Positions 34,066 to 35,200 of a DNA stretch of 64,000 bases are shown in pieces. The position numbers were made by a program, and so were the translations under genes. Under the pieces are notes generated by a model. The model was not told where the DNA came from and ran no database searches. It worked only from the letters and a program-made list of their open reading frames with translations. The first letter of the stretch is position 1; each line of letters begins with the position of its first letter. Source of the DNA: Eledone cirrhosa (lineage: Eukaryota); contig OZ024740.1 of the NCBI GenBank assembly GCA_964016885.1, forward strand, positions 309,938,001 through 310,002,000, given 5' to 3'.

Positions 34066-35200
34066 TGTAAACAAGCGAACAGCCTGATTTATGCCATACG
34101 GTGTTAAGGCAACCATGTCACCTTTTTGTTCAACACTGACACAGGAACGATGTACTAGTTTCAAGCTTGTTAGCTATCATCAGCACCGTATACCCTTCTG
34201 CCAGATAGTTGAACGTTCGAAAGTATATACTTTCCCTATGAAAATTAACGGCTGAGCAGCCTAATTTGCATATCGAGTGAGTTCAGTCGGCCAGGCGTAC
34301 CGAAAACGATAAGTTGTAATATAATGAAACGAAATTTCATTTCTCACTCTTAGTACGGCACTTACTTAAATGTGGCAGAAGGGTATACGGTGCTGATGAT
34401 AGCTAACAAGCTTGAAACTAGTACATCGTTCCTGTGTCAGTGTTGAACAAAAAGGTGACATGGTTGCCTTAACACCGTATGGCATAAATCAGGCTGTTCG
34501 CTTGTTTACAAACGGACAAAGCGGGCGTTATAATAAACGTTCGCTAAACTAATACGTACATATATATATGTGTACCTGTATGTATATATATATATATATA
34601 TATATATATATATATATATATGCATGCTACTGTACGTCTGTATACATATATGTATGTACGTATACATACATACTTACATTTAAGTAAGTGCCGTACTAAC
34701 AGTGAGAAATGAAATTTCGTTTCATTATATTACAACTTATCGTTTTCGGTACGCCTGGCCGACTGAACTCACTCGATATGCAAATTAGGCTGCTCAGCCG
34801 TTAATTTTCATAAGGAACGTATATACTTTCGAACGTTCAACTATCTGGCAGAAGGGTATACGGTGCTGATGATAGCTAACAAGCTTGAAACTAGTACATC
34901 GTTCCTGTGTCAGTGTTGAACAAAAAGGTGACATGGTTGCCTTAACACCGTATGGCAAAATCAGGCTGTTCGCTTGTTTACAAACGGACAAAGCGGGCGT
35001 TATAATAAACGTTCGCTAAACTGATACGTACATATATATATGTGTACCTGTATGTATATATGTATATATATATATATATATATATATGCATGCTACTGTA
35101 CGTCTGTATACATATATGTATGTACGTATACATACATACTTACATTTAAGTAAGTGCCGTACTAAGAGTGAGAAATGAAATTTCGTTTCATTATATTACA
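34066..35200. mobile_element. Retrozyme-like array: inverted partial copy (34066-34372) plus tandem ~473-bp units (34373-35200), with three identical hammerheads
   Basis: TGGCAGAAGGGTATACGGTGCTGATGA recurs at 34373 and 34846. 34066-34372 is the reverse complement of part of the unit. The copies are nearly identical. Confidence 0.9.
34388..34428 (+). ncRNA. Minimal type I hammerhead ribozyme (identical copies at 34861-34901 + and 34148-34188 -)
   Basis: CGGUG-CUGAUGA-U-AGCU(AACA)AGCU-U-GAAA-CUAG-UA^-CAUCG; stem III is the palindrome ACUAGU. Confidence 0.88.

Follow-up and report, generated by a model that had tools for sequence, protein, structure and literature searches.

A 473-nt hammerhead repeat with a head-to-head inverted copy in Eledone cirrhosa, a probable retrozyme insertion with features of Penelope-like elements

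The mobilisation of animal retrozymes has been attributed to Penelope-like elements (PLEs), an attribution that rests on co-occurrence and on relatedness to pseudo-LTRs (pLTRs) (PMC7229834; bioRxiv 10.64898/2026.07.22.740005). In the second of these studies (Li, Clavereau and Pollet 2026), retrozymes are argued to be non-autonomous Penelope derivatives, and one of nine Xenopus retrozyme dimers cleaved in vitro. PLE insertions themselves have a standard layout, a partial tandem with an adjacent inverted 5'-truncated copy (PMC8557442, PMC3846280). A biochemical view of how such insertions may arise comes from the Anolis Poseidon protein (Poseidon_Ac), which extends both target strands and prefers AT-rich DNA (PMC11167929). 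Poseidon reverse transcription is initiated at an AC-rich stem-loop, 111-118 nt into the ORF, and the ribozyme cut lies at 26, so that by our own subtraction the start falls 85-92 nt past the cut. For retrozymes, literature searches and the main texts of the two retrozyme papers yielded no report of inverted copies or of defined priming sites.

Here we analyse a hammerhead locus within a 64-kb stretch of genomic DNA (the window). The best explanation, to which we give a probability of roughly 80%, is that the locus represents one recent insertion, for which a PLE supplied its reverse transcriptase and GIY-YIG nuclease in trans, and that the inserted sequence belongs to a non-coding family of hammerhead repeats, an animal non-LTR retrozyme. 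Direct support comes from the anatomy of the locus, from four breakpoints that lie off the cut site, from the shared ancestry of its three pieces and from variation in the family that preserves structure. The involvement of a PLE is supported by a GIY-YIG ORF remnant and by further hammerhead elements in the window. The unit itself found no match elsewhere in the 64-kb window, as an autonomous partner or as pLTR homology. We set unit position 1 at 34424, the first base past the first predicted cut, so that the 473 nt extend to 34896, and distinguish the following parts.

34064-34373, minus strand: inverted copy truncated at its 5' end; in reverse complement it covers unit 253-473 followed by 1-89, and it meets the array head-to-head
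34064-34066: TTT/AAA overlap with a T9 run in the flank, at the left end of the inverted copy
34153-34183, minus strand: hammerhead carried by the inverted copy, with C3 at 34183 and cleavage predicted after 34153
34373-34423, plus strand: beginning of the direct array, truncated at its 5' end to unit 423-473; it carries hammerhead 1, which is without the outer part of the extended helix I; C3 at 34393, predicted cut after 34423
34424-34896, plus strand: the single full cut-to-cut 473-nt unit; GC 35.5%, non-coding, predicted to be 67% paired as a circle
34552-34663, plus strand: TA-rich imperfect inverted repeat (long hairpin) within the unit; second copy at about 35024-35129
34835-34921, plus strand: hammerhead 2 with extended helix I, C3 at 34866, predicted cut after 34896
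34897-35201, plus strand: partial second unit (unit 1-312), ending TTAC/AA and passing into (TA)n
34967-34998, plus strand: hairpin with the AC-rich loop ACAAAC at 34980-34985, a candidate start site for reverse transcription; it corresponds to the site of the inverted copy's outer end
35202-35328: (TA)n microsatellite at the right end, probably the target site; the neighbouring hammerhead element shares it

About 1.8 direct copies of the unit occupy 34373-35201, in the order unit 423-473, 1-473 and 1-312 followed by (TA)n, and the 310-nt inverted piece at 34064-34373 lies head-to-head with them. The first-pass annotation had called this a young tandem-plus-inverted array; the arrangement is as described, although it holds only one full unit plus partials. 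Its pair of sense hammerheads 473 nt apart (C3 34393 and 34866) and single antisense copy (C3 34183, minus strand) were recovered, and our scan agreed with the cuts it had predicted after 34423 and 34896 and placed a third after 34153 on the minus strand. It had also described the units as nearly identical. Indeed, the ribozymes of all three pieces are identical letter for letter, the pieces differ by four substitutions and one 1-nt indel once the internal TA run is excluded, and the inverted piece shares 98.7% identity with 34676-34981 across 307 nt. The two 5'-truncated ends join at 34373 with a 1-nt overlap and without a palindrome. A tRNA search of the 473-nt unit returned none.

All three copies of the ribozyme contain the core C3 U4 G5 A6 N7 G8 A9, G12 A13 A14 A15.1 and U16.1 H17, with GUA as the cut triplet. 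Helix I is open; its 6 bp are followed by an internal loop, and an extension carries it to 34835/34921. Helix II (AGCU-AACA-AGCU, 4 bp) is seated on a U10.1·U11.1 mismatch, which replaces the usual 10.1-11.1 pair, commonly G-C. This feature, which the first-pass annotation does not mention, is a known natural variant, and PMC3088659 describes U-U as the best-tolerated mismatch. Helix III is the palindrome ACUAGU, which forms 2 bp with a 2-nt loop when alone, too short to close by itself, and 6 bp in a dimer. The proposal that a palindromic stem III would allow two minimal hammerheads to form a dimer is therefore borne out for the palindrome but not for the word minimal. The minimal hammerheads (min-HHR) of PMC4209133 have a long helix II, an extra base between 9 and 10.1, a G10.1-C11.1 pair and a short helix I, whereas the helix II found here is of 4 bp without G-C at its base, and helix I is of 6 bp with an internal loop. 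Judged against the description in that paper, the motif fits the canonical-type metazoan type I hammerhead, not the minimal one.

None of the three copies reached the Rfam gathering score (Hammerhead_HH9, 17.6 vs 52 bits; E 0.03, 116 bases). As a control for chance, a stricter descriptor gave seven matches in the window, compared with 0-2 in each of 20 windows after block shuffling; no match that combined a palindromic helix III with a 6-bp helix I appeared in any of the 20. When metagenomes were scanned, the exact pattern returned no match and a relaxed one returned a single candidate (L001), which we rejected as chance since it lacked helices I and II and bore no similarity to the window. 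Matches to Rfam miRNA and snoRNA families were likewise discarded, all being sub-threshold and mostly tracking the TA hairpin.

The class of the ribozyme bears on whether the unit is instead the pLTR of an autonomous PLE, the locus then being a truncated insertion that stopped short of the ORF. Metazoan PLEs carry hammerheads of the minimal type, which is not what we find. Moreover, in the full 473-nt cut-to-cut unit the longest ORF spans 39 aa in sense (from an ATG) and 54 aa in antisense, so no coding part lies between successive ribozymes. We thus regard the pLTR reading as improbable, even though the inverted-plus-tandem layout and the end in an AC loop are PLE features and Xenopus retrozymes are related to pLTRs (bioRxiv 10.64898/2026.07.22.740005).

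The ends of the pieces bear on the template. None of the four breakpoints lies at a cut site, and the pieces cross the cut site three times; the template was thus not a cut linear monomer, which leaves an uncut multimer or a circle. From both of these, ends away from the cut site would be expected. Of the outer ends, one maps to unit 86-89 and the other to 310-312; each is preceded by TTAC and continues into As that the flank shares, which amounts to A/T microhomology. The unit contains just two TTACAA words, and both are occupied by an outer end. Among 351 pairs of AA-run starts, the outer-end pair is the only one to share four upstream letters, a match that concerns two ends at one locus and a motif defined after the fact. 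The inverted copy's outer end, 86-89 nt past the cut, lies in the AC-rich loop ACAAAC of the hairpin.

Some further properties of the ends may be recorded. TTACA occurs once more in the unit, for the last time, at 34674-34678 (unit 251-255), where the inverted piece has its inner end; all three TTACA words are found at three of the four breakpoints, with a different register at 34674-34678. In unit coordinates 223 nt separate the outer ends (89 vs 312), and the optional PLE tail of 30-40 nt is absent. A search for a target-site duplication found no word of at least 5 letters common to the two flanks, and the right-hand (TA)n may belong to the neighbouring element.

We propose the following course of events for the retrozyme insertion. 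Both target strands would have been nicked in AT-rich DNA, and the nicked strands would have primed cDNA on uncut retrozyme RNA at internal UUAC/AA sites. One cDNA of about 830 nt would have passed through two cut sites and the other, of 310 nt, through one, after which the cDNA 3' ends would have been joined head-to-head by 1-nt microhomology. The neighbouring hammerhead elements count against such priming, since they terminate at motifs other than TTACAA, 35-75 nt beyond their cuts. A more specific version, in which Penelope machinery reverse transcribes on both target strands at sequence-defined UUAC/AA sites of a circular 473-nt RNA, we consider unlikely. Were this version true, the family would show at the level of insertions that Penelope machinery integrates a canonical-hammerhead retrozyme, the two ends of each insertion would be drawn from a small set of sites, and the retrozyme circle model would be tied to Poseidon's internal priming in vitro. 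By analogy with the system of PMC11167929, sequence-defined internal priming would be expected to produce fixed ends on a circle or a linear multimer alike.

The differences among the pieces speak to their origin. An A at 34933 is present in all three pieces, and G occupies this position in 8038/8145 and 5612/5819 reads of the RAD sequencing run X21. Sharing of this rare A indicates that the three pieces came from one source. Copy 1 alone carries its letters at 34700 and 34818, the family alleles being found in 2464/2486 and 5278/5362 plus-mate X21 reads, and the polarisable differences (34700, 34818 and the 34957 indel) are each limited to one copy. These letters are best explained by a single source that was copied three times in the recent past; some of the between-copy differences could be assembly errors.

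The same pattern has been weighed for a sub-case of our preferred explanation, in which, as the first-pass annotation implies, a circular 473-nt monomer was copied for more than one round. Such rolling-circle copying would carry cDNAs across the cut site three times unchanged, would place the rare 34933 allele in all pieces and would leave each polarisable difference in one copy. The monomer ends are predicted to pair through the extended helix I, and circles have been shown for coral, mussel and axolotl retrozymes (PMC7229834). However, an uncut transcript of a young homogeneous array would give an identical pattern, and in the one PLE system studied in vitro, RNA that had not been processed served as the main substrate, and mutating the ribozyme left insertion normal (PMC11167929). 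We therefore see a circular template as possible, with the odds somewhat against it.

To place the locus within its family, four of the 23 listed sequencing runs, none of which is recorded as RNA, were compared with 34624-35050 at a likeness of at least 80%. In X21, 55,058 of 12,467,656 reads matched, a figure that is not a copy number; 450 of them were at least 99% identical, 17,411 fell at 95-99%, 22,387 at 90-95% and 14,810 below 90%. Matching contigs numbered 4,416 in X1, 50 in X4 and 5 in X5, the last two runs carrying two other organism labels. The 473-nt repeat is an abundant, diverse multi-copy family. Sharp X21 read ends at 34713/34716, 34783/34786 and 34803 were considered as element ends and rejected; they coincide with AATT sites and were thus read as library cuts, and loose ends at 34957 may be library cuts too. 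One loose end in X4 (four contigs, agreement 0.64) runs on into a different helix III palindrome.

The variants of the family were set against a structure predicted from the window copy. Within the 87-nt ribozyme domain, none of the ten variant positions falls among the 61 core or Watson-Crick positions (hypergeometric P 1.3e-6, for the 40 of 76 variants listed). These ten, among the same 40 of 76, comprise N7, sites in loop II and in other loops, and three positions of G·U pairs. The changes 34863 G>T and 34899 T>G each convert G·U to U·G; their frequencies run in parallel in X21, but X5 has one without the other. The best 12 of 14 indels include none in the ribozyme domain. Outside the domain, six of 29 variants lie in predicted Watson-Crick pairs, which account for 154 of 274 positions (P 4e-5, again for the 40 of 76 listed). 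The circular monomer folds with a z of -8.0, and of -3.7 with the TA part removed (60 shuffles each). Because the variants spare the core and the pairs, and because the circular unit folds at low z, the family looks, on these predictions, selected for RNA structure.

Contig depth in both X1 and X4 is also high over two further blocks of the unit, 34699-34720 and 34774-34805. A common variant at 34808 improves the pairing of the second, which is a hairpin. Both blocks are possible conserved RNA elements.

The reads also contain opposite-strand joints at other positions, in nine of the best 15 of 87 joints from X21 (orientation not given). Two of these nine adjoin an AATT site, and in three of the nine one side falls at 34977-34983, near the AC loop, vs about one expected in this small sample. 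Such joints are at odds with the idea that the locus arose at the DNA level, through local duplication and inversion of one old monomer, through satellite-type unequal exchange or in part through misassembly between TA runs, with the ribozyme as a passenger. It is true that long TA runs bound the locus, that no target-site duplication was found, that none of the matching run contigs spans 34624-35050 and that local amplification has been proposed for retrozyme arrays (bioRxiv 10.64898/2026.07.22.740005). Yet both outer ends lie at one motif, each with A/T microhomology to its flank, and the copies differ at several positions, in some cases against the family allele, unlike a collapsed assembly. 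We give an origin at the DNA level only a slim chance.

With a retrozyme insertion as the preferred reading, we considered what RNA the locus might yield, using fold energies that exclude tertiary contacts. Folding predicts a weak ribozyme: the isolated form favours an inactive pairing (-12.4 vs -8.5 kcal/mol, predicted), and in sense-only RNA from 34373-34925 the double-hammerhead fold lies 9.5 kcal/mol above the minimum and the two single forms 11.5. Transcripts that start at or before about 34206 include the antisense of the ribozyme. In read-through RNA, leaving both ribozymes free costs 80 kcal/mol relative to the minimum, and folding as the dimer costs 293. A transcript starting within unit 1 holds a single ribozyme only. 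A 473-nt monomer could, by these models, be obtained only from starts between about 34207 and about 34387; large energy gaps computed for starts at 34207 and 34300 were set aside as an artefact of a folding model restricted to nested pairs.

The first-pass annotation had singled this out as the best locus for activity, a view that the folding results do not support. Since read-through RNA would pair with the inverted piece and so trap one ribozyme, the locus at 34064-35201 is probably a poor source and more likely a product of jumping. Most likely, as modelled, the family ribozyme cuts slowly and mainly as a dimer, freeing 473-nt monomers from longer arrays elsewhere.

The window holds other hammerheads. 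A second, unrelated element is present at 35329-35829 and at 53635-54230 (minus strand), with C3 at 35679 and 53786; it has a 55-nt helix II region, a non-palindromic helix III and a period of about 490 nt, and its copies, 90% alike, each terminate in (TA)n, 74-75 nt beyond the cut. A small inverted hammerhead pair with palindromic helix III occupies 37373-37641 (C3 37437 on the minus and 37573 on the plus strand), both arms ending about 35 nt past the cut. Inverted arms of 211 nt, 98.6% alike, enclose about 1.1 kb (40406-40616 and 41749-41959) and bear hammerheads with C3 at 40513 (minus) and 41852 (plus). A lone hammerhead with a 12-bp helix II at 31762-31808 (minus strand) adjoins a repeat with an 883-nt period (30362-30736 and 31245-31620; 80% alike).

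Coding remnants and other repeats are found as well. A broken Penelope-like ORF at 38026-38963 (plus strand) has a Pfam GIY-YIG match at the cut-off (22.6 bits), and broken ORFs at 55044-55478 (minus) and 28019-28438 (plus) appear Penelope-like by eye, a Pfam search giving no match. At 18421-20517 (plus strand) there is a long reverse transcriptase ORF (Pfam RVT_1, E 4e-30), and at 18367-18424 (minus strand) a tRNA-like sequence just over the Rfam threshold; a similar stretch lies at 5996-6105. Such remnants of reverse transcriptase and GIY-YIG, in DNA rich in microsatellites, agree with an animal genome. A dispersed repeat of about 185 nt is present in at least six copies, 84-96% alike (9452-9632, 24711-24898, 26699-27011, 43930-44116, 60345-60530 and 1071-1267), with a partial tandem at 26694-27011, and gave no match to the hammerhead descriptor.

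Compared with described systems, the locus stands closest to the animal non-LTR retrozymes. Two consecutive type I hammerheads occur in a tandem repeat (34393 and 34866), and by sequence criteria the initial reading of the repeat as a retrozyme holds: it is a new member of this class and, by the same token, a putative non-autonomous Penelope-like derivative. As in the retrozymes of PMC7229834 and bioRxiv 10.64898/2026.07.22.740005, the tandem is non-coding with one type I hammerhead per unit, GC is below 50%, the predicted circle is highly self-paired and PLE remnants are present in the genome. At 473 nt the unit exceeds the 150-450 bp of PMC7229834 but falls within the 51-972 bp of the bioRxiv study, and it differs from the described retrozymes in its internal TA hairpin. 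The head-to-head inverted copy seen here is absent from the main texts of both papers. Expression as linear and circular monomer RNA is a further trait of the class. Its ribozyme resembles the axolotl HHR_Amex2 (PMC7229834), whose monomer cleaved 22% in an hour and which worked much better as a dimer, in the U·U at the base of helix II and in a short helix III; going by the published description, helix III is shorter here (2 bp with a 2-nt loop) and fully palindromic.

The likeness to PLEs concerns the insertion. The inverted 5' piece had been taken at the outset as a PLE signature, and the layout indeed matches that of PMC8557442 and PMC3846280. The partial tandem with an inverted 5'-truncated copy and the proposed join by microhomology are shared with insertions of endonuclease-bearing PLEs, as would be the (TA)n if it is the target. 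The end that lies within the AC-rich loop, 86-89 nt beyond the cut, recalls the priming of Poseidon_Ac (PMC11167929). Unlike PLEs, the locus has no ORF, a 223-nt spacing of its ends instead of a 30-40-nt tail, no palindrome at the inversion centre and a canonical-type, not a minimal, hammerhead. The class is a known one and the locus itself ordinary; its value lies in what can be tested with it. One insertion here has ends that agree with the priming geometry of Poseidon in vitro, and an abundant family offers a direct and cheap genome-wide test of that link.
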